Positions 5,051-31,231 of a stretch of 64,000 nucleotides of DNA are shown here, in pieces (the first letter of the stretch is position 1; each line of letters starts with the position of its first letter). The notes beneath the pieces were generated by a model that had not been told where the DNA came from, searched no databases, and saw nothing but the letters and a program-made list of their open reading frames with translations. The position numbers and the translations under genes are program-made. The DNA comes from Candidatus Latescibacterota bacterium (GTDB lineage: Bacteria > Latescibacterota > UBA2968 > GCA-2709665), in assembly GCA_965116875.1 (NCBI GenBank), contig OZ220733.1, positions 1,664,001 to 1,728,000 on the forward strand, in the 5' to 3' direction.

Positions 5051-5110
5051 AATAACCCTCCAGCGATTGTGGAAAAACACGACAGACAACCCTGACAATT
5101 GATCACGGCA

Positions 5111-6718
5111 TCATGGTACGAATCGATAGACCACGGGCAATTGGGAGGGATCGGTGACGCTCGTGTCGGTGTGGTGGTAGATATTGATGCGTCCGGTGCC
5201 GCAGTCGCCGAATTCATCGCAGGCGACGGTGCCGACGAGCGCCTGAAAACCGGACGTCGCGTGGAGTTCCCGTCGCAGCGCGTTGCGGTCCACGATCAGC
5301 GCTCCGTCCCTTGCAATCGCCACGGATTCGATGGCGCTGAGGAGCAGGGTCACGGCGTCGTAGGAATGCGCCCAGTACGGCGTGCCGGGAAATCCACCAT
5401 ACGCAGCGTCATACGCGGCCAGCGCCTCGTCCACGCTCCTGCCCGTAACCATATTGACATTCGAGCCGAGATCCGCCACCGGTCCGGCGGCGTACACGCC
5501 CTCGGACTGCGGCGAGGCGAGAAACTCCGAATCGAGCAGGGCGGCGCCCGTAATGAGGGTTACCCCTTCGAGACCGTCGAATTCCCTTGCCTGCTTCGCG
5601 AACGGCAGACCCTCCTCGTCGAAAAGCGGGAAGAAGATGGCATCTGGTCCCGCTTCCGCGAATTCCGTGAGAACGGAGGTCATGTCCGTTTGTCCTTTGT
5701 CTATCCGCGCGCTGACAGGTACCTCCCCTCCAACTTCGGCGAACGCATCGCGGAACGCGCTGACGAGGGCGGTGGTATAGGCGTCGCCGTCGTCGACCGC
5801 AACCATGCGCCTCAGGCCCAGTTCATTGTACGCGAAATCCGCGACGGCCCGGGCCTGATAGAGGTCGTTGATCGCAAGCCGGAAGTAACCGGGGTGATAG
5901 TCCGGACTTGCGTTGCCCGCCAGGTCGGACGTCAATCTCGGAGACGTATTGGAAGGCGAGATCATGACCAGACCGGCCGCGCTGATGACCGGTGAGGCCG
6001 CTACTGCCGCGCCGGAGCAGGAGGTGCCCACGACGCCCAGCACCCGCGAATCGGCGACAATCCGCTCTGCGCCCGACCGACCGCCCTCCGGCCCGCACAG
6101 GCCGTCTATCGGATCGCCGAGTTCAACGTTGCGGCCGTGTACGGTCCCATAGTCCCGGACGGCCAGCTCAACGGCCTTGCGCGAAGGATCGCCAAGCGAT
6201 GCCGCGATCGTGTGGGTGAGCAGCGAGCGGATGTGTACGGCCTGACCCTCGCGGAACGCAACCAGGGCCCGCTCATACGTACCCGTAACGCGCGCCGTTT
6301 CCCCAACCGGCAAATCGACGTCGGTTTGGTATCCACCGTTTATCGGTATACTGGACCACGATCCCAGAGCGCTTCCATTCAGCATCGCCCGGACCCGGTA
6401 GTAACCCCCCGGCCCGCCGATCTCCACCTTCGCCACACCGTTCGCGCCGGTCGTTCCCGACGCCTCGTAGTCCGCCGAACGCCCGGAAATGGAACGTGCG
6501 ATTTCCACGTTGGCCCCGCTTACCGGATTCTCCCCCTGCATTACCCGGGCCACAACCAGGGCGGGCGTGGTGTCTCCATCGACAGCCAGTTTACCCAGTG
6601 GCCGGCCGGTTGGTACGTCCGCCTCGGGTACCTGCGACGGGGTCAGGCGTTCACCCCCGCAACCCCAGGTTACGGCCGCGACAAGCGCATACAAGAAACT
6701 GCGAGAACCGGTAAACAT
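5111..6718 (-). CDS. lipoprotein: Ig-like module + LivJ/LIVBP-type substrate-binding domain (subtype B)
   Basis: Start MFTGSR after GGAGG, TWGC, GTSCSGAA, ISPSNTSP, CDEFGDC. Confidence 0.88.
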   Translation of the reverse strand: MFTGSRSFLYALVAAVTWGCGGERLTPSQVPEADVPTGRPLGKLAVDGDTTPALVVARVMQGENPVSGANVEIARSISGRSADYEASGTTGANGVAKVEIGGPGGYYRVRAMLNGSALGSWSSIPINGGYQTDVDLPVGETARVTGTYERALVAFREGQAVHIRSLLTHTIAASLGDPSRKAVELAVRDYGTVHGRNVELGDPIDGLCGPEGGRSGAERIVADSRVLGVVGTSCSGAAVAASPVISAAGLVMISPSNTSPRLTSDLAGNASPDYHPGYFRLAINDLYQARAVADFAYNELGLRRMVAVDDGDAYTTALVSAFRDAFAEVGGEVPVSARIDKGQTDMTSVLTEFAEAGPDAIFFPLFDEEGLPFAKQAREFDGLEGVTLITGAALLDSEFLASPQSEGVYAAGPVADLGSNVNMVTGRSVDEALAAYDAAYGGFPGTPYWAHSYDAVTLLLSAIESVAIARDGALIVDRNALRRELHATSGFQALVGTVACDEFGDCGTGRINIYHHTDTSVTDPSQLPVVYRFVP

Positions 6719-6852
6719 GACAGGCACCTCCAATTTAAGATTCAACCGCAAAATGAACCCGTTGAATCAGTCAGATGGCTCGGGGACCGGCGTGGGAAGC
6801 CGGAAAGGAATCGTCTACGCGAAAACGGACACCGTACGTCGTTGACGCAAGA

Positions 6853-8364
6853 TCATTCGAAGATCTCGAATTTGCCACCACGCGCAATCAGCACAACAGG
6901 ATCGTAAACCGCATCCCCGTCGGCGTTGAAAGAGAACTGGCCCAGGATTGTATCCAGATCCCGGATTCCCGCCATCGCGTCTCGAATCGCACTCGCATCG
7001 GCTGAACCGGCAGTCGCGATCGCTTCCGAGAGAATATGGAGAGCGGCATAGGACTGTGCCGACCGGCGGCTGGCGTCAATATCGTATTTGGCTTCGAAAT
7101 CTTCAACAAAAGCCTGGTTTCCCGGCGTGGCAGCCAGTCCGGTCCAACCTGTAAACGTAATTGCGCCTTCAGCGGCTGCGCCCGCGGCTCGCACTTCGTT
7201 CAAGGTCATCTCCAGAGTAATAAAGGGAACACCGGGGGGAACGCCCAGGCGACGGCCCTGGATCAGAATCTCAGACAGTTCTGCTGAAAGGGCCGAGACG
7301 AAGACGGCGTCCGGATTCAACGCTTTAATCCGGGTCAACTGGTCGACAAAGGTCGTATCGCCGGTCTCAAACGTCTCCCTGGCCAGGATCTCGACTCCGC
7401 TTTCGGCGAGCGCACCGCTCAGGGTCTCGTCGCTGCTCCGGGTGAAGACGTCGATCCGATCGTATATCGTCGCCACTCTCTGATAGCCGAGCTTCTCATG
7501 CGTCTGCCGGATGCCGGCGGGTACGAGGACATCCACGCTGAGCGCAACACGGAAGATGAAATCGCCAATCGCGCTCAGGCCGGATGCGCTTGAGGTCGAA
7601 CTGAATGCCACGACCCGATTCCGTTGCGCGATGGGGAAAACCTCTTTGGCCTCGGTTGAGAGTGTGGGGCCGAGAATGGCGGGAACACCGTCCTGATGAA
7701 TGAGCTTGTTGAACGCTTCAACGGCGCCCTCTGGCGATCTTCGAGAATCCTCGATAATGAACGCGATGCTCGCTTCGCCGAGTTTGGATGAGCCGTTGAT
7801 CTCGTCGCGAGCGAGTTCAAAGCCGCTCTTGATCTCCAGCCCGCGCGGGGTGTTCAGGGGCAGGACGATGCCAATCGCAATTTCACCACGGAGACACTCT
7901 GATGCCGGAAGGGACGAACCCGTCACGCGCGCGGTCCCGCCAACGGGCAGGTCAACCGTGACTTCATACCCTCCATTTATCGGAATACTCGACCATGTCC
8001 CCAGCGGACCACCGTCTCGCATGGCCCGGGCCCGGTAGTATCCGCTCACCCGGTCTCCCCGGATCTCTACCCGCGCCTGACCGTCCACGCCGGTTGTGCC
8101 CGACCATTCGTAACCGGCAGCCCGTCCTGAAACTGCACGGGCGAAATCGACCGTGACGCCGCTTACGGGCGTCTGACCGTTCCGCACGCGGGCCAGCACC
8201 ACGGATCGCGTCAGGTCTCCTTTGGCCGCCAGCTTGCCGAGAGATTGCACCTCCTCGCCATCTGTCCCGGGTACTTGCGACGTCGTCACGCGTTCGCCAT
8301 CGCATCCCCAGGCTACGGTTCCGACAAGCACGAACAAGAAGAGACGGTGAATGCAGGTTGACAT
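6853..8364 (-). CDS. lipoprotein: Ig-like module + LivJ-type SBP (subtype A)
   Basis: AWGC, paralog of 3530-5050, ends FNADGDAVYDPVVLIARGGKFEIFE. Confidence 0.88.
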   Translation of the reverse strand: MSTCIHRLFLFVLVGTVAWGCDGERVTTSQVPGTDGEEVQSLGKLAAKGDLTRSVVLARVRNGQTPVSGVTVDFARAVSGRAAGYEWSGTTGVDGQARVEIRGDRVSGYYRARAMRDGGPLGTWSSIPINGGYEVTVDLPVGGTARVTGSSLPASECLRGEIAIGIVLPLNTPRGLEIKSGFELARDEINGSSKLGEASIAFIIEDSRRSPEGAVEAFNKLIHQDGVPAILGPTLSTEAKEVFPIAQRNRVVAFSSTSSASGLSAIGDFIFRVALSVDVLVPAGIRQTHEKLGYQRVATIYDRIDVFTRSSDETLSGALAESGVEILARETFETGDTTFVDQLTRIKALNPDAVFVSALSAELSEILIQGRRLGVPPGVPFITLEMTLNEVRAAGAAAEGAITFTGWTGLAATPGNQAFVEDFEAKYDIDASRRSAQSYAALHILSEAIATAGSADASAIRDAMAGIRDLDTILGQFSFNADGDAVYDPVVLIARGGKFEIFE

Positions 8365-8497
8365 GGCACCCCCTCCGGCTTGAATTCAACCTGTGAAACG
8401 AACAGGAGTGGCTGGCTGATCGCTTCGTATACGGGCTTTCGAATCCAGCCGGAACGATCTCTCAGCGCAGAGGTATTGGAACAAAGGACACGTACGA

Positions 8498-10021
8498 TCA
8501 TTCGAAGATTTCGAATTTGCCATCACGCGCAATCAGCACAACGGGATCGTAGACGGCATCCCCGTCGGCGTTGAAAGAGAACCTTCCCAGAATCGTATCC
8601 AGATCTCTGATGCCCGCCATTCCGTCGCGAATCATCCCCGGATCCGTCGAACCGGCCTCCGCGATTGCCGCGGCGAGAATATTGAGCGCCGCATAGGATT
8701 GCGCGGCCCAGTGGTTCGGATCGGACCCGAATCTCGCTATATAGTTCTCGACGAAACCCTGATTGCCGGGCGTCGTTGCCGACAGGACCCAACCTGTAAA
8801 TGTAATCGCACCTTCCGCGGCTTCACCGGCGGCCTGCACTTCATCTATGGTCAGTTCCGTGACAATGAACGGCACGTTGGCGGGTGTGCCCAAACGCCGT
8901 CCCTCGACCAGGATCCGGACCTTGTCCGCCGGCGATATCGCGGAAACAAATAGTGCGTCCGGGTTCAGCGCCCCAATGCGGGTCAATGGTTCGACAAAGG
9001 TGGTATCGCCCGTTTCAAACGTCTCTCTTGCCAGAATCTCGACGTCCGCGGCGGTCAACGCGCTCCTGAGCGCCTCGTCGCTTGCCCGCGCAAAGAAATC
9101 GCTCTCATCCACGATCGTCGCCACCCTGCGATAGCCCAGTTTATCCTTCGTCTTTTCAACGCCTCCGGGCACGAGTACGCCCAGGCTGAGTCCGGCACGG
9201 AAGATGTGGTCGCCGATCGCGCTCAGCCCGGGGGCTACCGAAGTTGAACTGAAGGCGACAACCTCATTCTCCTGCGCGACCGGGAAAGCCGCGACGGCCG
9301 CGGTCGAAAGCGTCGGACCGAGAATTACCGGTACTCCGTCCCGGTGAATCAGCCCCTCGAACGCTTCAACCGCGCCTTCGGCACTGGCGCGGGAATTCCC
9401 GACAACGAACGAGATGGACGCTCCGCCCAGCCGGGATGACACGTTGATCTCCTCGCGGGCGAGTTCGAATCCATTCATGATCGGCTGGCTGAAGGGGCGC
9501 TGCGGCTCTTCCCAGGGAAGTACCAGGCCGATCGAAATCCGCTCGGGCAGACCTCCCGGCGTCAACTTCAATGAGGCGGTCACACGGGACGTTTCGCCGA
9601 CCGGTAATTCAACCGTGGATTCGAATCCCGCGTTGACGGGAATGCTGGTCCAGGAACCCAGTGCGGTCCCATCCTGCATAGCCCGCGCACTATAATAACC
9701 GCTCACCCCGTTTCCCGCAATCTTGACGCGGGCGCGCCCTCGTGCGTCCGTCTCACCGGACCACGCATAGTCCGCCGCCCGTCCGGAGACGGATCGGGCG
9801 AACTCAACGGTGACGCCGCTCAGGGGCGCCTGGCCCTGACGGACGCGAACGATGACAAAGGTCTGTGTCATGTTTCCGTCTAAAGCGAGCTTGCCCATCG
9901 CGGGCGCAACCGCGTCCTCTGCTTCCTGAAGCTGCGACGTCGTGACGCTTTCGCTTCCGCAACTCCAGCTCACGGAAGTGATGAGCGTAAATACCAGCGA
10001 ACTCCGGAACTTGCTGAACAA
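8498..10021 (-). CDS. lipoprotein: Ig-like module + LivJ-type SBP (subtype A)
   Basis: Probable TTG start at 10021 after AGGAGG; SWSC; paralog of 6853-8364. Confidence 0.86.
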   Translation of the reverse strand: MFSKFRSSLVFTLITSVSWSCGSESVTTSQLQEAEDAVAPAMGKLALDGNMTQTFVIVRVRQGQAPLSGVTVEFARSVSGRAADYAWSGETDARGRARVKIAGNGVSGYYSARAMQDGTALGSWTSIPVNAGFESTVELPVGETSRVTASLKLTPGGLPERISIGLVLPWEEPQRPFSQPIMNGFELAREEINVSSRLGGASISFVVGNSRASAEGAVEAFEGLIHRDGVPVILGPTLSTAAVAAFPVAQENEVVAFSSTSVAPGLSAIGDHIFRAGLSLGVLVPGGVEKTKDKLGYRRVATIVDESDFFARASDEALRSALTAADVEILARETFETGDTTFVEPLTRIGALNPDALFVSAISPADKVRILVEGRRLGTPANVPFIVTELTIDEVQAAGEAAEGAITFTGWVLSATTPGNQGFVENYIARFGSDPNHWAAQSYAALNILAAAIAEAGSTDPGMIRDGMAGIRDLDTILGRFSFNADGDAVYDPVVLIARDGKFEIFE

Positions 10022-10088
10022 ACCGGACCTCCTCAGAATAAACGAACTCAGGCGGAACGAGCAGACACGCGCCTTCCGCCAAACCGCA

Positions 10089-10120
10089 AAATGACAGGCA
10101 GCCTGCACTGCCTGTCATTT
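10089..10120 (-). terminator. hairpin, probable intrinsic terminator/attenuator
   Basis: Perfect 13-bp stem AAATGACAGGCAG / CTGCCTGTCATTT with a 6-nt loop, between two array genes. Confidence 0.55.
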
Positions 10121-10201
10121 ATGTGGTACAAACCGGCCGGCGCGGATACTCATGACCGGTGAAAAGTGAACTCACCCGGGAAACCGGGCCATGCTTCCAC
10201 A

Positions 10202-10267
10202 GAGAATCAAACCGGTCGATTCGTAAACCGCGTTCCAATTCGCATCGAATGAGATCGATCCCCGAAT
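10202..10267 (-). pseudogene. decayed 3' end of a seventh subtype-A SBP gene
   Basis: Minus strand translates IRGSISFDANWNAVYESTGLIL versus paralog ILGRFSFNADGDAVYDPVVLI. Confidence 0.6.
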
Positions 10268-10298
10268 TCAATCCTCATCCCGACTGACGGTCGGCGCT

Positions 10299-11915
10299 TC
10301 ACGGTTCGAACCGATAGACCACAGGTAGCTCAGCGGGGTCTACGATGTTTTTATCGGTGTGGTGGTAGATGTTCACAACCCCGGTGCCGCAGTCTCCGAA
10401 CTCGTCACACGTGAGTTCGCCGATGAGACCCGGAAAACCCGCCGTGGCCCCCACCTCGGCGCGCAATGCGACGCGGTCTATGTATAACGTTCCGCCATCG
10501 GTCACCGCAACCGACTTGATGGCGCTCAGAAGGAGCGCCGTGGCGTCGTACGCGTGCGCCCAGTAGGGATTGGTATGCGTCCCCCCGTAGATGGACTCGA
10601 TCTCGGCGAGTACCGCGTCACTGTTCTTGCCGGTCGCGATATTGACGTTTTCGCCGTGAACCGGCTCCGGCCCCGCAAAATAGATGCCTTCGGACTGCGG
10701 TGTGCCCAGGAACTCCGAAAGGAGAAGGGCCGCGTCCGTCAGGAGCGTCGCGTCTTTCAAACCATCGATATTTCTGACCTGCTCGGCAAACGGCGAACCT
10801 TCAGCAATGAAGAGCGGGAAGAAGATTCCGTCGGGTCCGGCGTCCGCGAAATCCGCCAGGACGCCGGTCATATCCGTTTCGCCTTTTTCGATCCTGGCCG
10901 TCACCGGGACCTCGCCGCCGAGTGTGCGGAACGCATTGCCGAATGCGCCGGTGAGACCCATTGTATACGGGTCGCCGTCGTCAATGGACACCACCCGCCG
11001 CAGGCCCAATTCGTTGTATGCGAAGTCCGCGACCGCCTGTCCATGATAGAGGTCGTTGTTGGCCGTACGGAAATAGCCGGGATGATAGTCGGGACCGGGG
11101 TTGCCCGTGAGGTCGGAGGTGAGCACCGGCGACGTGTTGGCCGGCGATATCATCACCAGACCCGCCGCGCTGAGCAGAGGGGAAGCGGCCACGGCGGATC
11201 CGGAACACAACGTGCCGATGACGCCGATTACCTGCGGGTTGGCGATGATCTGCCCCGCGCTGGCGCTTCCGCCGTCCGGCGAACACATGCCGTCTATGGG
11301 CTCGCCGAGTTCAACCTCGTGACCATGAATGGGGCCATAGTCTCTGATGGCCAACTCGGCGCTGTAGCGCGCCCAGTCCGAAACGGACGGTACGACCTCG
11401 TGCGCGAGAACCGTACGGATCTGCACCGGCTGGCCTTCACCGATGGTCACCACGTCCCGCGCGGTTGTACCCGTCACGACGGCATTGCCTTCAACCGGCA
11501 GGTCTACCTTTGTCTCGTATCCGTCGTTGACCGGTATGCTCGACCACGAACCCAGAACGCTGCCGTCCTGTACGGCCCGCGCACGGTAGTAGCCGCCCAC
11601 CCCGGGGCCCCCGATCACAACCCGAACCCGACCGCGCCCATCGGTTGTGCCCGACCACTCGTAATTCGCGGGCCGACCTGAAACCGAACGCGCGAACTCC
11701 ACGGTGACGCCGTTGACAGCCGCATCGCCCTGTTGCACGCGGGCAAGGACAGCGGCCTGCTCACTGTCTCCACCGAACGCCTGTTTGCCGAGGGGCCGAC
11801 CTGCTTGTTCCTCCGCCTCCGGCGCCTGCGACGTCGTCACGCGGTCACCGCCGCAGCCCCACGCCACACCCGCGGCAATCGCCAGGATCAAAACGCTGCG
11901 AATCCCCGGAAGCAT
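10299..11915 (-). CDS. lipoprotein: Ig-like module + LIVBP-type SBP (subtype B)
   Basis: AWGC, paralog of 5111-6718 (GTLCSGS, CDEFGDCGTG, VVYRF). Confidence 0.88.
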   Translation of the reverse strand: MLPGIRSVLILAIAAGVAWGCGGDRVTTSQAPEAEEQAGRPLGKQAFGGDSEQAAVLARVQQGDAAVNGVTVEFARSVSGRPANYEWSGTTDGRGRVRVVIGGPGVGGYYRARAVQDGSVLGSWSSIPVNDGYETKVDLPVEGNAVVTGTTARDVVTIGEGQPVQIRTVLAHEVVPSVSDWARYSAELAIRDYGPIHGHEVELGEPIDGMCSPDGGSASAGQIIANPQVIGVIGTLCSGSAVAASPLLSAAGLVMISPANTSPVLTSDLTGNPGPDYHPGYFRTANNDLYHGQAVADFAYNELGLRRVVSIDDGDPYTMGLTGAFGNAFRTLGGEVPVTARIEKGETDMTGVLADFADAGPDGIFFPLFIAEGSPFAEQVRNIDGLKDATLLTDAALLLSEFLGTPQSEGIYFAGPEPVHGENVNIATGKNSDAVLAEIESIYGGTHTNPYWAHAYDATALLLSAIKSVAVTDGGTLYIDRVALRAEVGATAGFPGLIGELTCDEFGDCGTGVVNIYHHTDKNIVDPAELPVVYRFEP

Positions 11916-12049
11916 TGGAATCTCCTCCCACGGTCAAAGACGCGTTTCGGACTGTTAAGCAGGCGTCCAGGGTCTCCTTGTCATGCAATTGCGGACATTT
12001 GAAAAAACAACCCCCAGACACACGACCCCGGCAGAAGCGACTGACGGGT

Positions 12050-13558
12050 TTATTCGAACAGCTCGAATGCGCCGTCGCGGACGATCAGGACGATGGGATC
12101 GTAAACCGCGTCGCCGTCGTCGTTGAACGAAAACCGGCCCAGAATCGTGTCGACGTCACGGGTAGCGGCCATTGCGTCCTTGATTGCGCCCGCATCCGTT
12201 GATCCGGCGTCCGCGATTGCATCTGCAAGAATGTACAGCGAGGCGTACGAAAGCGCGGCCCACGGACCGGGTTCACTGTCGTTTGCCGCCATATAGCTTT
12301 CGATAAAGGTCTGGTTCCCCGGCGTGGACGCGTTGGTTGCCCAACTCGTAATGCTGATCACACGTTCCGCGGCGTCTCCGGCGGCGGCCACCTCATCCAA
12401 TGTCATTTCGGGAATAATGAGGGGAATATTCGAGGGAATGCCGGCGTCTCGGGCCTGGAGCATAATTTGAATCATCTCCGACGCCAGACACGAAACGAAG
12501 AGGGCGTGCGGATTCAATTCCTTGATGTTGTTCAACTGGTCCGCGAACGACGTATCTCCCGTTGCGAATGTTTCCCGGCCCAGAATCTCCACCTCGCCTT
12601 CCGTGAGGGCATTCGTTACCGCCTCGTCCAGGCTCCTGGAATAGACGTCTGCATCGTCGACCATCGTGGCGACCCTGCTGAACCTCAGTTTCTCCTGCAG
12701 GTCCTTGACGGCGCCGGGGACCAGCGTACCCACGTTGAGACCGGAACGGAAGATATAATCGCCGATCGCGCTCAGGCCGACTGCGGTGGAGGTGGAACTG
12801 AATGCCAGGACTTCGTTCTCCTGGGCGATTGGGAACACTTCCTTCCCCACGGTGGAAATACCGGGGCCCAGGATGACGTTCACGCCGTCTTCGTTGATGA
12901 GTTTGTTGAACGCCGCGGTGGCGGCGTCGACCGTGCCCTCCGTATCCTCGACGATAAATTCGATGCTCGCGCCGCCGAGTCTCGAAGAACCGTTGATTTC
13001 TCCCTGAGCCAACTCAAAGCCTTCCCGCGCCGGCACGCCGTACACGTTTTGAGGACCCGTCAGCGGCACGGCCAGGCCGATGGTGATCTTCGCCGGCAGA
13101 CCGCCGGGCGTCAGCGCGATTGCGCCGGTTGCGCTCGCCTTGTCGCCGATCGGCAGTTCAACCGATGACTGATATCCGCTGTTGACCGGGATGCTCAACC
13201 ACGAACCGATCTCGCTGCCGTCCCGCATCGCCCGCGCACGGTAGTAGCCGGTCACCCCGGCGCCCCCGATGTCCACGTGGGCCTGACCGCGCGCATTCGT
13301 GGACCCCGACCACTCGAAACTGGCGGGCTGGCCGGATACCGAACGCGAGAACTCGACGGTCGCACCGCTTACAGGCGTTCCGCCGTCCGACACGTTTGCC
13401 ACCACCACTGCCCGCATCATGCCATTGAGTGCCAGCTTGCCCGCGGCCTGGCCACCCGCCTCCGGTACCTGCGACGTTGTCAGGCGTTCACGGCCGCAAC
13501 CCCACGTCAGACTCACTGCCACTGCGAACACAAACACACTGCGAATACCACCGAACAT
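12050..13558 (-). CDS. lipoprotein: Ig-like module + LivJ-type SBP (subtype A)
   Basis: Start MFGGIR at 13558 after GGAGGG; TWGC; closest to 3530-5050. Confidence 0.88.
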   Translation of the reverse strand: MFGGIRSVFVFAVAVSLTWGCGRERLTTSQVPEAGGQAAGKLALNGMMRAVVVANVSDGGTPVSGATVEFSRSVSGQPASFEWSGSTNARGQAHVDIGGAGVTGYYRARAMRDGSEIGSWLSIPVNSGYQSSVELPIGDKASATGAIALTPGGLPAKITIGLAVPLTGPQNVYGVPAREGFELAQGEINGSSRLGGASIEFIVEDTEGTVDAATAAFNKLINEDGVNVILGPGISTVGKEVFPIAQENEVLAFSSTSTAVGLSAIGDYIFRSGLNVGTLVPGAVKDLQEKLRFSRVATMVDDADVYSRSLDEAVTNALTEGEVEILGRETFATGDTSFADQLNNIKELNPHALFVSCLASEMIQIMLQARDAGIPSNIPLIIPEMTLDEVAAAGDAAERVISITSWATNASTPGNQTFIESYMAANDSEPGPWAALSYASLYILADAIADAGSTDAGAIKDAMAATRDVDTILGRFSFNDDGDAVYDPIVLIVRDGAFELFE

Positions 13559-14025
13559 GACGATCCCTCCAATGCTGCGGGTTACCAGCGAAAAGAGCCG
13601 GAAAGCCATAAGCAGCGCGCTCGAATACCGCCCACTGAAGCTGGCTCCTGACCCATTCACCAATGTGATTGAAGACGTGAATGAACCGAACGACAACGTC
13701 CCTGCTCGAGCGCTCGGATGCGCTGTCGGATTTATCCGTAATAATGAATATAAACGCAATTTCCCTGTACACAAGGGCATGTCCGAATTTCTTTTAAAAA
13801 AAGCCCGCTCAATTTCCGGCTTGAATTCGAGCCGACGAGGATACCGATAGACGGAACAGGCTGGGTCTTACAAATGTTGCCACATGACGAAAAAACCAGC
13901 GGCCCGAATTGCGGCCCCTGGTTGACGGATAGACGCCGATCGCGCCGGAACCTTTCATATGTCCTTCCCGAAAGGGTTTTCCGCCCCGGCTTCCCGGCAG
14001 GGATCCGGAAACCACGCACTGTCCG

Positions 14026-22289: not shown

Positions 22290-23657
22290 TTACGAAAGCC
22301 AGCTTTCCCAGTCGTTCAGAGTGACAAACCGGCCGTCCTGAACAACGGTATAGTATACGGTTTGCAGTCCCTGTCGCCGGTCGGGCCCGAAAGAGACCTT
22401 CTCACCGATGCCGAGGTCGAAATCCCGGACGGAGAAAACCGCGTCCTCCAGACCCGCCCTGCCTGGATTGTCACCGAGACGCCTCAGAATCTCGGTCATC
22501 AGCTTGGCATCCAGAAAACCCTCGAGGCTTACGAAGCTCTGCTCGAACGGACTGTAGGGCTCTTTGACGAGCTCCCGGGGAACGGCCGGATTGTAACGCG
22601 CCATCAGCTCACGGTACTCTCTCACGGCCGGAATGGACGTGTCTTCGTAGCTGGGCACGACCTGGGAGTTGACGAGATACCGGGTGTACGTCTCGGCGTC
22701 CTCCCTGCCCTCGCTGAGCAGATGCAGCAGGTTCTCGCTGCCAACGAACGAGAGATTGGCGATCGGGACCTTCAGGCCCAGATCGATCGCGTCGCGAGCG
22801 AAGGCGGCGCACGCCGCGTACGACCCGATACAGATGACGGCGTCCGGAGAAGCCTTCTGCAGAATCTCAACCTGCCGCCTCATGCTCCCGGTGAACCTCT
22901 GCCCGCGTTGGTACGTCGCCTCGCCGGCAATGTGTTCTCCGTGCGCCTCGATTGCCGCTCGCACGCCCGCCCATCCGCTGCGTCCGTACGCGTCTGCCTG
23001 ATAGAACACGGCGATCCGCTTTCTGCCGGTCTGAACGAAATTGTCCACAAGCCCCGCGGTCTCCTGGCGATAGGACGCCCGGAGGTTGAACGCGAAATCC
23101 CCGTATGGCGGCTCCCTTTGAGGCTGGGCGCCGGTAAACGGGAAAAACAGATAGACCCGCTCGTCCTGAAACTTCTTCAGCAGCGGAAGCGCGCGGGTCA
23201 CAGTCGGCGTACCGACGTACCCGAATAACAGGAACACGTGATCTTCCAGCATGAGCTTCATGGTGTTCTTCACACACGGGTCCGGCTGGTATCCGTCGTC
23301 GTACAGCTTGAAGACGATCTGGCGGCCGCCAACGCCGCCATTTTCATTGACGTGGTTGAAGTACGACCTGGCTCCCCGGTAGAGCTCGCTGCCCAGCCCC
23401 CGGGAGGGCCCGGAAAACGCGGCGGACATGCCCAGGACGATCTTGCCGTCATAAACGCCTTCGGAGCCTCCGGCGCGACTCTGATCGACATCAGAATCCC
23501 CGTTCGACCCTCCTGTCTGGGCGCCAACGTCCTTCCAGCCTCCCCAGGAAAACGCCAGCAGTCCGAGCAAGCCTCGACGGAGCATCGACCTTCGCGTCAG
23601 GTCGGACGCGTGTTCGTTCCGCGGGTCGTGTCCGTCGGTACAACTGAACATATCCAT
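22290..23657 (-). CDS. Tat-exported type I periplasmic binding protein
   Basis: LTRRSML Tat motif; LGMSAAFSGP, YDDGYQP, GYVGTPT, FNLRASY. Confidence 0.88.
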   Translation of the reverse strand: MDMFSCTDGHDPRNEHASDLTRRSMLRRGLLGLLAFSWGGWKDVGAQTGGSNGDSDVDQSRAGGSEGVYDGKIVLGMSAAFSGPSRGLGSELYRGARSYFNHVNENGGVGGRQIVFKLYDDGYQPDPCVKNTMKLMLEDHVFLLFGYVGTPTVTRALPLLKKFQDERVYLFFPFTGAQPQREPPYGDFAFNLRASYRQETAGLVDNFVQTGRKRIAVFYQADAYGRSGWAGVRAAIEAHGEHIAGEATYQRGQRFTGSMRRQVEILQKASPDAVICIGSYAACAAFARDAIDLGLKVPIANLSFVGSENLLHLLSEGREDAETYTRYLVNSQVVPSYEDTSIPAVREYRELMARYNPAVPRELVKEPYSPFEQSFVSLEGFLDAKLMTEILRRLGDNPGRAGLEDAVFSVRDFDLGIGEKVSFGPDRRQGLQTVYYTVVQDGRFVTLNDWESWLS

Positions 23658-25070: not shown

Positions 25071-25304
25071 CTACGACTCGGCGGACTCCTCCGCACCGTC
25101 TCCGTTTTTCGCGCGGATGCGTTCCACGTACGACCGGCCCTTGTTTACGGCTCTGTCCACGTTGCGTCGAACGGTCTGGCGGGTTTCGATACCGCTCCGG
25201 GGCGCCAGCAAAACACCGGCGATGATCCCCAGGGCCATCCCGATAATTGCGCCGAGGCCGAATACCCCCAGGCAAAAACCCAGGTCATTCGTCTGACGAT
25301 CCAT
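25071..25304 (-). CDS. YtxH domain protein
   Basis: GAIIG...GVLLAPRSGIETR; ATG after AGGAGG. Confidence 0.75.
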   Translation of the reverse strand: MDRQTNDLGFCLGVFGLGAIIGMALGIIAGVLLAPRSGIETRQTVRRNVDRAVNKGRSYVERIRAKNGDGAEESAES

Positions 25305-25712
25305 CCAGGCCTCCTGGTCCAATGGTTGTCCCGCAATCAGTTTCCTGCAAGAATCCCTAATTTATAATGCAAATTATCAGATTAGTCAATGCAATTGGTA
25401 GAAACTGCCCCGAAACGGAGCGCATGGTCCACAAGGATTTATTGAAAATTCGCGCATAGTTTACGTTCGTGTTACGATCTCTACCGAACTCCCAGTTACC
25501 TCTGATGGAATGGCGAGCAACGGCCGGCGGCGATGATCCAAATACGCTGGAATAAATCGTTGCGGGGCGATTCACGGCCGAGCTGTGCCGTTCGTCGAGC
25601 CAGTACTCGATTAGGTCCCTCATTTCATAGTTCAGTCAATTGCGATAACTTCGCTCTGTCTATTAGACATTCCTTTCGAATAATCGATGCAATTCTGCAC
25701 ACGCTAATGCAC

Positions 25713-27758
25713 TTACGCATTTCTGGGCGTTGGTTTTTTTCCCGTCACACCTTCCCAAATCTCAGGTGTGGCGCAATAGAATCGCTTGCCATCATGATCG
25801 ACTATGTGAAGATTCCCTTCGCCGAGCAATAAGGTGAGAATTGGACGCTTAAGCTCATTTTCTGTGCGCGAATCTTCAGGTGTTTTGCTTTCCTTGATGA
25901 GGTAGTATAGCTGGCCATCATAGATGCCGACTAACCCTTGCTCATCATTGACTGTGCTAGGTACCGAGTGGAACACGGCTCGATTCCTTATTTGCTCCAG
26001 CAGGCCGTCCTTGATGCGAGCCATTGCTTCCGAAGTTGCCTTTATGACTTCCTTTGCACCCGTGTTCTCGATCGCCTGTTCGTTTTCATCTCTGCAGATG
26101 TATTCTCTATAGATTTCGCCGAAATCGCGAAGGCGAACGGGAAGAACAAAGGGTTGATGTGGTGCGCTCCACATGTAACAGTTTCCGGGAATCGGCTCCG
26201 CAATAAGATGAGCGAGAATATCGGATGAATAATGGGAGTTGTATTTTCCGAGTACACCAGCATCACCTTCGGACAACAGATGAAAACAGAACCAGTTGTC
26301 CGCTTGGCTAAGCAGTTCTGGTGCCATCGCACCAGGTTGTTGTGTGATGAGCATGGCCCCAAGATCGTACTTGCGTCCTTCCTTAACCCATTCGACATAC
26401 GGGCTAGTATCGTCCAAATTGCGACCAAGGACACTCTGCGCCTCTTCTACAATGGCTACGACAGGTATGATTGGTGCACCGCCAGTGAAGTGCTCCTGAT
26501 TGTGGGAGAAGATCCTTCGGAGAATCAAGCCTGCGAGCATATTGCCAGCACCAGAACTCAACAGGCTGATATCGATTACAACGATATTTCCGTTCGCAAG
26601 AGCCTGCAGCGTTCCAGTCAATACTTGGCTGTTCGAATCATGGAGCGTCCGCACTACGCCATACATGTTGCTACGAGCAGCCCCAATTTCAGCCGCGGAT
26701 TGTTGGGTCTGCCCCTTTTCGTAACCAAGGAGTCTACCGACTTCCTCGTCGCTAGCTTGCAATCCCTTTTTGTCAATAAGCTCAACGAGTTCACGCCAGT
26801 TAGAATCGGAAACGCTCTTGAGCTTAAGCACATTCTGTTGTGTTTGGCGTTCGGAAGAAATCGTAATGCTGATCACATCGCGTGGAGAGAGATCCCTAAT
26901 GTCTAGTTTCACCTCGCCAGCCTTCCAACTGCCATAGTACGCGCTTGGGGCCGGTCTGTTGGTAAACGCAAGTAGCCGTTCCTTTAGATGTGGCACATCG
27001 CATAGTCCCGGACGATCAGCAACACGATCCGGCCAAAAATACTCTCCGTCCGGATCGAAGATCAACGTGCCCACAGGACGGTTGTTTGCAGTCATCGGTT
27101 GTTCTTGATACAATTCTGAAACCAGAAACTTGACAAGATTGGACTTTCCATAACCCGCTCTTGCAAAAACGACCGAACGCCTGGATACGAGCTTCTTAAT
27201 GTCAAATGTTACTTGGAGACAAGGATCAAGAGAAATCAGTTCTGGTTGCGATTGGTTGAATGCAGCACCGCTGTAGACGAATTCGCCCAATACATACATT
27301 CCCAGTTCGGTAGTACCCCGACTTAGATTGCAGAGTTCTTGTAGGACTTGATCGCTAGGTAAGGCTACACGAGCACCGAGATGTGGCAGTCTGCGTTGAG
27401 AAGGTACGTAAATGATCCCGCTATCGACGGTGCGTACAGCTCCAAGCAGTTTTACTTGAACGCGGTATTTTAGACGTTGCTGCTTCAAATCCTCGGGCAC
27501 TTCTTGCTGCCTACGCTGCATTGTGTTTACGTAATCTTCTCCTTCTGGAGTTGCGAGCAATCCAGATGGTACAAAACGGGTAATTCGCCCGAGAGACGCT
27601 TCCTCTTGGGAGCCTAGTTCGACGAGGAGGAATTGTCCGAGTTGGGGGCGGTCAAGCATACTCGCATCGTATGGGGCTACAATCTCGGCTGCGAATTCAA
27701 GACCTCGTTCGTTGAACCCCTTAAACGTCCCCACGATCTGCGAGTCCGCGAACAACAT
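25713..27758 (-). CDS. herA: HerA/FtsK-family ATPase with N-terminal HAS-barrel
   Basis: Walker A ARAGYGKS, IFDPDGEY, Walker B IVEEAQ, KEGRKY, ITQQP. Confidence 0.88.
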   Translation of the reverse strand: MLFADSQIVGTFKGFNERGLEFAAEIVAPYDASMLDRPQLGQFLLVELGSQEEASLGRITRFVPSGLLATPEGEDYVNTMQRRQQEVPEDLKQQRLKYRVQVKLLGAVRTVDSGIIYVPSQRRLPHLGARVALPSDQVLQELCNLSRGTTELGMYVLGEFVYSGAAFNQSQPELISLDPCLQVTFDIKKLVSRRSVVFARAGYGKSNLVKFLVSELYQEQPMTANNRPVGTLIFDPDGEYFWPDRVADRPGLCDVPHLKERLLAFTNRPAPSAYYGSWKAGEVKLDIRDLSPRDVISITISSERQTQQNVLKLKSVSDSNWRELVELIDKKGLQASDEEVGRLLGYEKGQTQQSAAEIGAARSNMYGVVRTLHDSNSQVLTGTLQALANGNIVVIDISLLSSGAGNMLAGLILRRIFSHNQEHFTGGAPIIPVVAIVEEAQSVLGRNLDDTSPYVEWVKEGRKYDLGAMLITQQPGAMAPELLSQADNWFCFHLLSEGDAGVLGKYNSHYSSDILAHLIAEPIPGNCYMWSAPHQPFVLPVRLRDFGEIYREYICRDENEQAIENTGAKEVIKATSEAMARIKDGLLEQIRNRAVFHSVPSTVNDEQGLVGIYDGQLYYLIKESKTPEDSRTENELKRPILTLLLGEGNLHIVDHDGKRFYCATPEIWEGVTGKKPTPRNA

Positions 27759-27759
27759 A

Positions 27760-28923
27760 TCAAGCCTCCTTGTATCTAAGGTTCGCCAGCGTCTGCCCTA
27801 GATACTTCATACGAAGCATACGTTCCGACTCATTTTCCGTCAGTCTCTCGCACAATCCGTTAAGTACCATGTCCTGGAGATCCTGTATCTCGAGGCCAGA
27901 TAATTTCGCAAAGTCGTGTGCTCGTTGGATACATATAGGGTAATCGGGAATAGGGAAGCCCTGCTGAGCATCTACTGTGAGTTGCCCGAGGATGCGTTCC
28001 GCCTGGTCGATCTGCCAGACTGCAATATCCACTGGCCAAACCGGGTCCATCGGTCTATCGCCGAACTTGACGAGGTAAAGTTGCCCGAGGGACTGATATA
28101 GCCTTCGACCGACATCGTCTTCTTCGGTAGTTTCATATGTATCTAGCCAAGTACGATCAAAGTTATAACACTCGGCTTCGATATCATTGTCAACCTGAAC
28201 AAAACAGGGATACGATTTGTGAAATGTAGCCTCAAGCTCCAGAGCGACGGCGAGTCGGCCAAGTACTGCGCTTTGCTTGGCAACTCCAACCAACGAAAGC
28301 TGCACATTTCTTGTCGTATGGGCGGCAACACCGGCGCGAATCTTCCGATCGATTAACGGAAAAACCTCTCGTGAAAACGACTTGGTTCGCAGTAGTCCAT
28401 CTCGAACCAGGATCGTATCCCCACCCCATTGAAGATTAGGGTTGGCGACCAAGTCATAAAGAACAGCCCATTCTACGATATCACGGTAACATCGCATTGC
28501 TCCGGTACTCTTGCCGGGCGTCCCAAGTCCTCTGAGAAGGTATGACATTTGTCTAAGCGATTTGCCGATATCTTGTGCTAATCGCTCTAACGGCGAAATA
28601 GTATTCCCCGATCCTTGTTTTGCCCTCGTTTCGAGTTCTTCAATACTAATTGTGCTGGATATCGCGTCGAGCGCGTGTTCATTACCACGTGAATCGACCA
28701 CACGAACAAGCTCGACAATCGCCGGATTGAAGACGAGACGATTGTCTCCTCCATCAGCAGAAACAAAAGAGACGGCATTGACCGAATAGGTTCGAAGTGG
28801 TTTAACGGCACTTCGAAGACGTCGTGCATACTCTCGAAATTTCCGAAGATGTGGTTCGTCAGTGTTGACTGCCTCTGCGACCTTTTTTCGGAGTTCTTCT
28901 CTGTCCAGGTTTGCTAGCGACAT
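27760..28923 (-). CDS. nurA: NurA-like nuclease
   Basis: SADGG, LVRDGLL, VGVAKQS, DYPICIQRAHDFAK match the NurA motif order; directly upstream of herA. Confidence 0.75.
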   Translation of the reverse strand: MSLANLDREELRKKVAEAVNTDEPHLRKFREYARRLRSAVKPLRTYSVNAVSFVSADGGDNRLVFNPAIVELVRVVDSRGNEHALDAISSTISIEELETRAKQGSGNTISPLERLAQDIGKSLRQMSYLLRGLGTPGKSTGAMRCYRDIVEWAVLYDLVANPNLQWGGDTILVRDGLLRTKSFSREVFPLIDRKIRAGVAAHTTRNVQLSLVGVAKQSAVLGRLAVALELEATFHKSYPCFVQVDNDIEAECYNFDRTWLDTYETTEEDDVGRRLYQSLGQLYLVKFGDRPMDPVWPVDIAVWQIDQAERILGQLTVDAQQGFPIPDYPICIQRAHDFAKLSGLEIQDLQDMVLNGLCERLTENESERMLRMKYLGQTLANLRYKEA

Positions 28924-28924
28924 T

Positions 28925-30094
28925 TTATCTGCCCATATCTTTGGCTATAGTATGAAGGCGACGAAGGTCATTAATTGTCTCGTCGAGAGTCCACGTTATC
29001 CAATCGGGAAACCTGTTTGCTCGAGGAATCGCCCACCTTCGAATCCAATAGTCAGTGATCTGGCTTGATTTCATAGTGATGTACTTTGGGCGTTTTGCTC
29101 TGCCCAGAAGGACGTCACGGGCATTGTGTGCGAGAGGAATAACGAAAACCTGCCGGTGTATACCATGTTGAAGCACATCAATCTTAATTCCAAGTTCCGC
29201 AGCAGCCCGCCGGATAACGCGGATGCGCCAGTTCGGACCGTCACCGAAGTTATTCCCCTTAGCATAGGAATGACCCCGACGCTCGAGGAGTCTCTGCAGT
29301 TCTTTAAATGTATGGTTATCAATATGGAAGTGGCCAAATCCCTTGGTATACCATGTTGGAATACGATCGTCATCAACATTTGATAGGAATGCGACACCAC
29401 CAGGAATACGTAGGCGGTTGTAGATAGATGATCGACCAAGAGCAGAAGATGTTGTCAGGAGAACAAGACGGGGATTCTTCCTTTTTTCACTAATAATACC
29501 TTTATAGTTGGAATACTTGACTCGGAAGTGCTTTACAACTTCGCTAGACGTCGCCAATAAAGCCACCAGTTTGCCACCTAGAATCCTGTTGTATGGTGGA
29601 AGAGCTCCAAGCACAAATGCATCCATCGAGTGAACAAGCCGCTCTCGTCGTCCACTGGCGTCCCAACCGACCCAAGCATCTCGTGGAGTAAGGTTAAAGA
29701 CAGGATCCGTTAAGCCGATTATACCGATGAGTTTACCGTTATTCTTGTCCCATACAAGATACCGCATTCGCCTTCCGAAGCCCTTGCTTACCGGCACTGA
29801 CCAAAGAAGCGAGGCTGCGTTGAAGATTTGCGAATCGTCATGTCCCGCAGTGACGATACTAAGGTATGGTTTGATGTTCGAAATCTCGATTTCGTTCGGA
29901 CAGGCGAGATGCTCACGCAATAGATCCATGTGATAGTTAAAAAAACCGTTCATTGACGACATGACTGACAGGCGTCTCTCTGAATGCAAGAAACGGATCT
30001 GTTCTTTACTCAGAGAGTTTGACGAGTTAGGTATTTTTCCTGCTACGCGGAGTAACTGTTCCCGGAGAGAGCATTCTTCTGGCGTTAGTTCCAT
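28925..30094 (-). CDS. druA: Druantia DruA-like protein (DUF4338)
   Basis: WSVPVSKGFGRRMRYLVWD..NGKLIG, DPVFNL..RD.WVGW, VLGALPPYN.ILGGKLVA, TTSSALGRSSIYNRL, GHFH, FGDGPNWR; alternative TTG start at 30112. Confidence 0.85.
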   Translation of the reverse strand: MELTPEECSLREQLLRVAGKIPNSSNSLSKEQIRFLHSERRLSVMSSMNGFFNYHMDLLREHLACPNEIEISNIKPYLSIVTAGHDDSQIFNAASLLWSVPVSKGFGRRMRYLVWDKNNGKLIGIIGLTDPVFNLTPRDAWVGWDASGRRERLVHSMDAFVLGALPPYNRILGGKLVALLATSSEVVKHFRVKYSNYKGIISEKRKNPRLVLLTTSSALGRSSIYNRLRIPGGVAFLSNVDDDRIPTWYTKGFGHFHIDNHTFKELQRLLERRGHSYAKGNNFGDGPNWRIRVIRRAAAELGIKIDVLQHGIHRQVFVIPLAHNARDVLLGRAKRPKYITMKSSQITDYWIRRWAIPRANRFPDWITWTLDETINDLRRLHTIAKDMGR

Positions 30095-30130
30095 GACTCT
30101 TCTTCCGACCAAATTCGACTCGTTTCCTGA

Positions 30131-31231
30131 TCAATAGTCCCACGGAATCCGATACGGGTGAGTAAACCCTCCCGGTTCTTGTAGAACGACTTCAAAGGCG
30201 GCGAGGTTCTCCGTCCGCGTCCCAGGATAGGCTCCCCGGTCCGGCGGGCCCACGCCCAATACCAGCGCCTCCGGCATCTCGAAGGCCGACCGGAAACCCA
30301 GCGCCTTCAAGACCTCCGTCTTCATCGTTTCGCCCGGTGTGTCCATCGTGCGCAGACGGCAGAAGCCCATGTCCGCGGCGGATTTCCGGACACCATCGAA
30401 CAACGCGCGGCACCGGTCCAAGCGCCAGGAACCCCGGTGCAGGTACATATCCATCAGACCGATATGGGCCTCGTGCCGGTTGTCCCATTGCGTTGTCCGC
30501 CACGGCGCCAGCGTTGAGAACCCGATCAGCTTCGACCCGGAAAACAACCCGAGCATCCGTACGTGCCGCGCCTCGGAACGCCCCTCCGACAGCTTCGGAA
30601 TCTCCACCAGAATCTGGCCCTCGTGCAGCTGATCGTCGGCGAGCAGCGTCAGCAGATAACTCTTCACCAGAACGTCAGGGTCCACCGCCGAGTTTAACAG
30701 GACCTGAATCTCGTTCAGATGGCTGAAATCGAGGGGCCGCACCTCCAGCGGGTCGCCGTCTCCAATACGGAAATACGCATCCAGGTATTCCTGTATACTC
30801 CCGCCGCCGTAGTCCAAACCCAGCCATTCCGGATGGTCCTGCACCACATCCCGAAACCCGTACTTTTCATATACCCGGTGTGCGATGCTCGGGCCGGTGT
30901 CGATAAACATCGCCTCGGCGCCCGTTTCTCTCACCGCGTCGATGCACAGCTTCAGCAGCCTCCCGCCCAGCCCCTTCCGCTTGTGTTCGTCGGCAAACAT
31001 CCCATAGTGTCCCAGCCGCCCCCAGGGACTGTGCCGGGACGTCAGCGTCCACCCCTCTCCCACGATCTCGCCGTTGAGATCCGCCACAAACCGCCGGATA
31101 TTTTCAAAATACCCGTACGGATTGATCCCGCACAGCGTGAACTGCACCTCGGTATCACTCTGGATTTCTCTGAACCCCTGTTCGCGGATCCCATAGTCAT
31201 CCACCTGTTCGATGATTCCGGGTTCAGACAT
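30131..31231 (-). CDS. GNAT family N-acetyltransferase (two-domain)
   Basis: HKRKGLGGRLL, AHRVYEKYGF; second degenerate GNAT half. Confidence 0.8.
   Translation of the reverse strand: MSEPGIIEQVDDYGIREQGFREIQSDTEVQFTLCGINPYGYFENIRRFVADLNGEIVGEGWTLTSRHSPWGRLGHYGMFADEHKRKGLGGRLLKLCIDAVRETGAEAMFIDTGPSIAHRVYEKYGFRDVVQDHPEWLGLDYGGGSIQEYLDAYFRIGDGDPLEVRPLDFSHLNEIQVLLNSAVDPDVLVKSYLLTLLADDQLHEGQILVEIPKLSEGRSEARHVRMLGLFSGSKLIGFSTLAPWRTTQWDNRHEAHIGLMDMYLHRGSWRLDRCRALFDGVRKSAADMGFCRLRTMDTPGETMKTEVLKALGFRSAFEMPEALVLGVGPPDRGAYPGTRTENLAAFEVVLQEPGGFTHPYRIPWDY

Follow-up and report, generated by a model that had tools for sequence, protein, structure and literature searches.

A DruA-led three-gene insert in a Latescibacterota genome, a putative defence cassette of the Tdp type

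In a 64,000-nucleotide (nt) stretch of the genome of a Candidatus Latescibacterota bacterium (contig OZ220733.1, positions 1,664,001 to 1,728,000; hereafter the window), a gene for DruA stands at the head of a compact block that also encodes a nuclease and a HerA-type ATPase. The question raised by this locus is what kind of machine the three proteins form and what DruA contributes to it. An initial annotation, made from the sequence and its translations, had proposed a new defence operon in which DruA joins a NurA nuclease and HerA. Our analysis makes it credible that the trio is a putative defence machine of the Tdp type, composed of HerA plus a nuclease with DruA in an exchangeable slot, and that it is a variant of a described arrangement and not an unprecedented one. 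The features concerned, in window positions, are the following.

28925-30094, minus strand: druA (DUF4338; gene 1), 389 amino acids (aa) from the ATG at 30094; the alternative TTG start at 30112 gives 395 aa (28925-30112)
27760-28923, minus strand: predicted nuclease of the NurA superfamily, TdpB type (gene 2), 387 aa
25713-27758, minus strand: predicted HerA/FtsK-type ATPase (gene 3), entire open reading frame (ORF), 681 aa
26109-27758, minus strand: HerA core, residues 1-550 (N-terminal barrel region and P-loop domain)
25713-26108, minus strand: HerA C-terminal domain specific to the DruA cassette, residues 551-681 and stop codon
25438-25712, minus strand: untranslated 3' tail of the insert, 275 nt
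25438-30130: low-GC inserted block of about 4.69 kb, whose content is the three genes and the 275-nt tail and nothing else

The three genes and their nearest described relatives

The three genes are co-oriented and neighbouring ORFs are separated by a single unassigned base, at 28924 and 27759, exactly as had been described. By its family matches, gene 1 is a clear DruA, as had been proposed: it matched Pfam PF14236 at 1.7e-77 and the PADLOC model DruA1 (PDLC00002) at 1.4e-123, and it matched no other family. Its relatives are labelled 'Druantia anti-phage system protein DruA' at NCBI, a search of the ESM Atlas returned DruA clusters only, and no match was found among PDB sequences. An alignment of 40 DruA homologues contained 50 invariant columns, among which Arg, Asp, His, Tyr and Ser were frequent; D116, K175, H255 and H257 are examples. 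The start codon is probably the in-frame ATG at 30094, because it is preceded by a purine-rich stretch and because the alignments of relatives, which begin at residue 6-7, fit the resulting N terminus.

The assignment of gene 3 to HerA also held (PF01935, HerA/DUF87, 3.6e-27), with partial or weak matches to the PADLOC HerA models. In a sequence search of the PDB, the best solved relative was TdpA (8wet_A, 1.1e-22), which outranked the ATPases of Sir2-HerA and DUF4297-HerA (8j4u, 2.5e-9; 8wiv, 2.4e-8) as well as the HerA of S. solfataricus. The Walker A (ARAGYGKS, ending at S206) and Walker B (VAIVEEAQ) motifs are intact, and gene 3 thus encodes a P-loop ATPase of the HerA/FtsK type that belongs with TdpA. 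Residues 551-681 extend past the stretch aligned to TdpA, a chain of 586 residues.

For gene 2, no match was obtained in Pfam even at E 10, where the NurA model itself was among those that failed, nor in NCBIfam or PADLOC, and as a single-sequence query it reached TdpB at E 0.04, a mere hint. An exhaustive homologue search yielded 300 representatives at E <= 0.001, of which 56 were aligned as a profile. This profile matched TdpB (8wet_G) at E 7e-17 and S. solfataricus NurA at E 0.21, the latter with the DGG and AH motifs aligned. The AlphaFold model built from the 56-sequence alignment had a pLDDT of 91, while the fold obtained without an alignment (pLDDT 33) was unusable. Foldseek placed TdpB first (6e-12), followed by the NurA proteins of Sulfolobus, Thermococcus, Pyrococcus and Deinococcus (NurA at 2.9e-5), with the Tn5 transposase at low rank. 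In VIA-align comparisons, the model aligned to TdpB over 332 residues with Z 25.6 and an rmsd of 3.6 A, to NurA chains with Z 10.5-14.9 (archaeal NurA 14-15; S. solfataricus 2ygk spanned model residues 1-367), and to Argonaute PIWI domains with Z of about 9-10.

Several acidic and histidine positions are conserved among the 56 sequences, namely D57 (52), D77 (52), E151 (54) and H336 (44), together with two sites at which Asp and Glu exchange, D175 (47 D and 8 E) and D299 (50 D and 6 E); the window copy keeps all six. The NurA-type Asp/Glu/Asp/His metal site (D57, E151, D175, H336) is conserved in 44-54 of the 56. Profile and predicted fold agree in assigning gene 2 to the NurA superfamily, which has an RNase H-like fold, and within it to the TdpB family. 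The earlier reading of this gene as NurA therefore stands at the level of the superfamily, while family-library models did not support it and the family is TdpB. Sequence, profile and fold likewise place the pair in the TdpA/TdpB type and not among the generic end-resection NurA-HerA pairs. More than 800 homologues of the nuclease remained at 90% clustering, and no fused forms were found among proteins of 679-2000 aa, which is weak evidence.

Among described systems TdpABC comes closest, with DruA here in place of its modification gene. TdpABC has reportedly been presented (An et al., Nat Chem Biol 2025; structures 8wet, 8wfd, 8y1k) as a phosphorothioate-based modification-restriction system of thermophiles. 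No solved proteins are more closely related to genes 3 and 2 than TdpA and TdpB, and the compact layout of motor, nuclease and one further gene is shared. The two systems differ in that the third gene here is DruA and not the phosphorothioate enzyme TdpC, that the HerA of the cassette is longer by a C-terminal domain of about 130 aa, that gene 2 is 15-16% identical to TdpB, and that the hosts of the cassette are mesophile-type environmental genomes. There is no TdpC in the insert, whose sole other gene is DruA (no TdpC search was made of the remaining genome).

Druantia type I, which is said to consist of DruABCDE (Doron et al. 2018), also has DruA as its first gene, but the cassette lacks DruB, DruC, DruD and the DruE helicase. 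When the trio and six neighbouring genes were scanned with PADLOC, none matched DruB, DruC or DruD, although the same models were positive at two other loci of the phylum (L045, L046), and the DruE-type MZB/DUF1998 domain (PF09369) had no match in the 5.45-Mb genome, whereas control genomes were matched. The archaeal and Deinococcus HerA-NurA machines (2ygk, 3taz, 9x1m, 7f6d) share the pair of folds and the expected arrangement of a hexameric pump feeding a dimeric nuclease, but they are far more distant (Z 10.5-14.9 against 25.6 for TdpB), and unlike the HerA-NurA repair operon the cassette is mobile and sporadic and has no linkage to mre11/rad50. The absence of druB-E and of mre11/rad50 nearby had been noted before and was borne out, the flanks being transport and metabolic genes. 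According to PMC12977600, HerA-NurA of T. kodakarensis degrades both strands, and its authors suggest a role in defence. Sir2-HerA and DUF4297-HerA also combine a HerA ATPase with an effector in a small mobile operon; here, in contrast, the effector has a NurA fold and a third gene is present, and neither a Sir2 nor a DUF4297 domain was found in the trio or its neighbours with Pfam and PADLOC.

PADLOC-DB 2.0 (2023) did not recognise the trio as a system and holds no model for gene 2, and no description of a DruA-NurA-HerA unit was found in the searchable literature, most subscription journals and supplements lying outside its reach; DUF4338 is mentioned there in four papers, and DruA, DruB and DruC appear together in one. 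The proposal of an undescribed three-gene system is accordingly upheld in that the trio is unnamed in these sources, but it had missed TdpABC as a near relative.

Acquisition and spread of the cassette and exchange of its third gene

The locus was compared with those of relatives. Four sampled relatives carry an orthologue of the GNAT gene that flanks the insert (30131-31231). In the closest relative examined (G014, 92% identity), this gene adjoins the outer-membrane barrel gene with no trio between them, and in a second relative (G011) the two genes are likewise adjacent without the trio. Nucleotide homology to G014 ends at 25435-25437 and restarts at 30126-30131, so that about 4.69 kb in the window genome stand in place of about 60 nt in G014. 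The block is also of foreign composition: GC is 0.48-0.50 over 25500-29999, against 0.57-0.63 in the left flank and 0.59-0.67 in the right, in agreement with the AT-rich block seen at first. The trio is a horizontally acquired insert, and its site is empty in G014. No inverted or direct terminal repeats were found at the ends of the insert, which holds the three genes only and no integrase, and each of the three is single-copy in the genome (97.7% complete).

Gene 2 was scanned against 185,579 species-representative genomes, and the position of the trio was determined by tblastn with the window proteins. Among the 22 loci obtained, DruA adjoins the NurA-like/HerA pair in 20, directly upstream in 19 and downstream in one (L019), and it is absent beside the pair in two (L008, L010); the synteny expected from the initial annotation thus recurs in other genomes. 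Among the 19 loci with DruA upstream, L012 is truncated by a contig end, L021 and L022 are decayed, and L016 has an interrupted HerA. In the decayed loci the entire cassette is frameshifted or truncated, and at L016:8167-11522 about 1.3 kb with a 429-aa ORF has been inserted into the HerA gene. When the 17 intact cassettes are compared in pairs, the identities of the three proteins are correlated (r 0.81-0.92), so that the three travel together and are inherited as one unit. Within HerA, the C-terminal domain (551-681) is fast-evolving in the same cassettes, with a mean pairwise identity of 0.394 compared with 0.765 for the core.

The identity of the nuclease is 59-87% across loci whose record titles name many phyla and other groups, namely Latescibacterota, Nitrospirota, Acidobacteria, Gammaproteobacteria, Phycisphaerae, Syntrophales, Syntrophomonadaceae, Poribacteria, Gemmatimonadales, Ignavibacteriales and Eisenbacteria. 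These comparisons indicate that the cassette is mobile and moves between phyla. Its occurrence within the phylum of the window genome is patchy: among 168 genomes, DruA was found in 15 and the TdpB-type nuclease in 8, and both in three, namely that of the window, G024, where they are adjacent, and G030, where they lie on separate small contigs. At the level of the genus, the nuclease is present in 2 of 14 sampled genomes, including that of the window.

The neighbourhoods of the 22 loci, comprising 117 flanking ORFs, were also surveyed. Restriction-type neighbours were found in 6 of the 22 (Type I R and M, Type ISP, GmrSD, NotI and a methylase, PLD, and a DEAD/MZB helicase). In 4 further loci there were toxin-antitoxin genes (HigB, or HipA with HTH) or an AAA_14/DUF4143 ATPase with an HTH gene, and at the other loci the flanks were metabolic or without assignment. 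At L015:10232-15133, a 1632-aa DEAD/Helicase_C/MZB helicase (YprA/DruE-like) lies convergent to and directly after the HerA gene of the cassette.

A sister arrangement of nuclease, HerA and methyltransferase genes was found in three genomes of the phylum.

L034:618-4963 (G014): NurA-HerA-methyltransferase cassette
L048:5903-10252 (G126): NurA-HerA-methyltransferase cassette
L049:5897-10246 (G134): NurA-HerA-methyltransferase cassette

In G014, this cassette is a low-GC insert next to a carbonic anhydrase gene, and the empty site that corresponds to the DruA insert is about 5 kb away. Like the DruA cassette, it is a three-gene low-GC insert with a homologous nuclease (37% identical to gene 2) and ATPase core (47% identical over residues 1-550). 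It differs in that its third gene, of 375 aa, is placed last and is predicted to encode an amino-methyltransferase, and in that the last ~140 aa of its HerA are unrelated to residues 551-681 of gene 3. The third gene shows a partial match to N6_N4_Mtase and to the methylases 2zie and CcrM, and its DPFCGRGTT and SPPYY motifs are invariant in G014, G126 and G134. The latter two belong to a different family within the phylum and share the three genes at identities of 59%, 67% and 50%, and the sister-type C-terminal domain of the ATPase is conserved in them at 31-32%. No name for this cassette is known to us.

According to PMC12914056, the modification gene TdpC occupies the third-gene slot in TdpABC. 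The third gene beside a TdpAB-type pair can therefore be one of at least three: TdpC, a methyltransferase or DruA. As far as the sequences of the DruA and methyltransferase cassettes indicate, the type of the ATPase C-terminal domain tracks the type of the third gene.

DruA, for its part, is not confined to this cassette. When the genes following DruA were scanned at 9 of the 12 other DruA loci in the phylum, it was found to head at least five distinct gene sets, NurA-HerA included. First, in G020 and G159 (L045, L046), DruA is followed by DruB-DruC-DruD. Second, in G141 (L047:5479-10654), it is followed by a 962-aa protein without a Pfam or PADLOC match and a strong DruD (7.9e-132), a Druantia-like variant in which one large ORF replaces recognisable DruB and DruC. 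Third, in G011 (L041:8542-13445) and G010 (L042:5453-10370), DruA precedes an 842-866-aa protein composed of a protein kinase and an ORC-CDC6-like AAA domain (PADLOC CARF6--CARF_STK_AAA) and a CARF-like protein of 368-408 aa, which by its gene content appears to be a further unnamed cassette headed by DruA; upstream of it in L042 is a GmrSD/HEC-06-like gene. At two loci DruA accompanies HerA proteins, in G084 (L044) with a more distant NurA (Pfam 4e-5) and a 583-aa HerA beside TmtA, and in G038 (L043) with a 423-aa ORF and a 592-aa HerA. Fourth, in G166 (L051:8355-18282), a 1303-aa fusion of DruA (PADLOC 2e-125) with an SspF-like P-loop protein is followed by a 1733-aa DndH-like protein; a DruA-DndF fusion of this kind is mentioned in PMC10853773, where DruA is also said to accompany DndF/DndH-like restriction proteins. 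In G145 (L052), there was a DruA remnant only.

The role of DruA and the rival explanations

On balance, we regard it as fairly probable that the trio is an intact mobile three-gene cassette most likely acting against invading DNA, whether phage or plasmid, although this function is putative. If the machine works as the solved TdpAB and HerA-NurA complexes suggest, DNA would be threaded by a hexamer of HerA into a dimer of the NurA-type nuclease and degraded there, and by comparison of the gene slots DruA would be the discriminating subunit that chooses the DNA to be attacked by the motor-nuclease.

In the version that we prefer, with less than even confidence, the cassette would follow the logic of Type III restriction-modification, by analogy, and DruA would both recognise DNA and mark the DNA of the host protectively. 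DruA would then fill the slot held by TdpC in TdpABC and by the amino-methyltransferase in the sister cassette, it would couple to the machine via the type-specific C-terminal domain of HerA, and the nuclease would stay inert without the third protein. A DruA that marks or recognises DNA is favoured because TdpC or a methyltransferase holds the same slot elsewhere; DruA also occurs with DndF/DndH-like restriction proteins. A complex prediction of HerA residues 545-681 with DruA scored 0.00; it was run without control pairs and gives no verdict. It is further conceivable, though rather unlikely, that DruA writes a novel protective DNA mark, neither methylation nor phosphorothioate, which would be read by TdpAB-type NurA-HerA, DndFGH-like and DruBCDE effectors.

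Several observations weigh against DruA as an indispensable, self-protecting modifier or against defence as such. First, L008 and L010 keep an intact NurA-HerA pair without an adjoining DruA, one of these two genomes (G169) has no DruA genome-wide, and the dN/dS of the DruA-less pair is 0.14-0.15, which illustrates purifying selection. Second, DruA evolves faster than its partners, with a mean pairwise identity over the 17 cassettes of 0.52 compared with 0.70 for both the nuclease and the ATPase. Third, DruA heads cassettes with partners that are not nucleases, such as the kinase/AAA and CARF-like proteins described above. Fourth, no match to the cassette was found in 72,556 plasmid and 50,697 phage records. 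Fifth, the nearest neighbours in the window are genes for an outer-membrane barrel protein, a periplasmic binding protein, a GNAT protein and a BNR protein, and the remaining window genes encode binding proteins, permeases and metabolic enzymes; therefore, the window copy is a solitary insert among housekeeping genes, outside any defence island. The expectation of a defence-island context is thus borne out by the restriction-type neighbours at other loci but not by the copy in the window. Type III logic would account for most of the evidence on DruA.

Two further loci touch on these points. The host of one DruA-less pair (G168, locus L008) carries a separate DruA (L054:6142-10300), 41% identical to that of the window and followed by ORFs of 460 and 607 aa of lower GC, which may be a divergent second cassette. 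Two IMG/VR records filed as viral (L055, L056), 99.98% identical to one another, contain Macro, Type I R, DruA-NurA-HerA and GmrSD genes; they were rejected as independent phage carriage, being the same defence island as L011.

The non-nuclease partners and the fast evolution of DruA also fit a role as a sensor, and a possible, somewhat doubtful second version is that DruA makes no mark but senses an invader cue and licenses the nuclease. In a wider form, which we hold just as tentatively, DruA would be a sensor or co-effector and not a DNA marker, either detecting a product of the invader or acting like an acyltransferase on a protein or tRNA, and it would trigger or back an effector; here the effector would be a NurA-HerA DNA shredder, and the outcome possibly abortive infection. 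The occurrence of at least five DruA-led gene sets in one phylum is the pattern expected of a shared sensor with swappable effectors, the fast-evolving parts are DruA and the C-terminal domain of HerA, and the loss of DruA is tolerated, as the two DruA-less loci and their selective constraint suggest. In PMC10853773, moreover, the Aravind group interprets DUF4338 as a GNAT that is likely to be a co-effector acting on proteins. However, this GNAT assignment was not reproduced by sequence comparison: among the 40 DruA sequences there were not even weak GNAT matches in Pfam, and hhalign of DruA against 27 GNAT domains gave a probability of 0.3%, at the sequence level only. In addition, DNA-modifying enzymes hold the same slot in two other TdpAB-type arrangements, one described in PMC12914056 and the other being the sister cassette. 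The searchable literature, including the YprA/ARMADA preprint and the PADLOC paper, contained no statement on the activity of DruA.

A role in housekeeping repair, in which NurA-HerA would process DNA ends as in Deinococcus and archaea with DruA as an accessory regulator, seems very improbable. The folds and motifs are indeed those of NurA and HerA, and purifying selection on the DruA-less pairs suggests a function independent of DruA. Nevertheless, the genomes with the nuclease are scattered (8 of 168 in the phylum, 2 of 14 in the genus), the site is empty in the closest relative and the GC is foreign, copies in distant phyla are 59-87% identical, restriction genes are neighbours at several loci, and mre11/rad50 are not adjacent.

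Equally remote is a selfish element, self-moving or addictive and of no benefit to the host, in which the RNase H-fold protein would be a transposase-like nuclease and FtsK/HerA a DNA pump: the compact insert of three genes without an integrase, the very strong conservation of the proteins across phyla and the low-ranked Tn5 transposase among the distant fold matches agree with it, but the cassette is single-copy in the window genome, lacks terminal inverted repeats and target duplications, lies at varying insertion sites that are often within defence islands, and has a nuclease whose predicted fold is far nearer to TdpB (Z 25.6) and NurA (14-15) than to any transposase.

The insert in its window and the significance of the cassette

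A few features at the edges of the insert complete the picture. An ORF of 88 aa (25357-25623) straddles the left border and had no family match in Pfam or PADLOC. A scan of 25200-30500 for promoters and terminators gave no signal beyond chance on the minus strand, and none in the 3' tail was terminator-like. Elsewhere in the window, a tandem array of six minus-strand paralogues at 3530-13777 encodes periplasmic binding proteins of 500-575 aa (Peripla_BP_6) that all carry about 160-230 extra aa at the N terminus; a seventh gene of this kind is located at 22290-23657.

Druantia type I has DruA as its signature protein, and no smaller setting of DruA is known than this cassette of three genes, for two of which TdpAB is a close analogue of solved structure; the cassette therefore offers a tractable route to the activity of DruA. 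The comparison also suggests a testable rule, in which a TdpAB-type motor-nuclease accepts TdpC, a methyltransferase or DruA as its one exchangeable partner and has an ATPase C-terminal domain to match. If the cassette defends its hosts, a widespread unnamed system would join the catalogues, and if the reading of a DruA-written mark were true, Druantia type I and the cassette would together form one new family of modification-dependent immunity.

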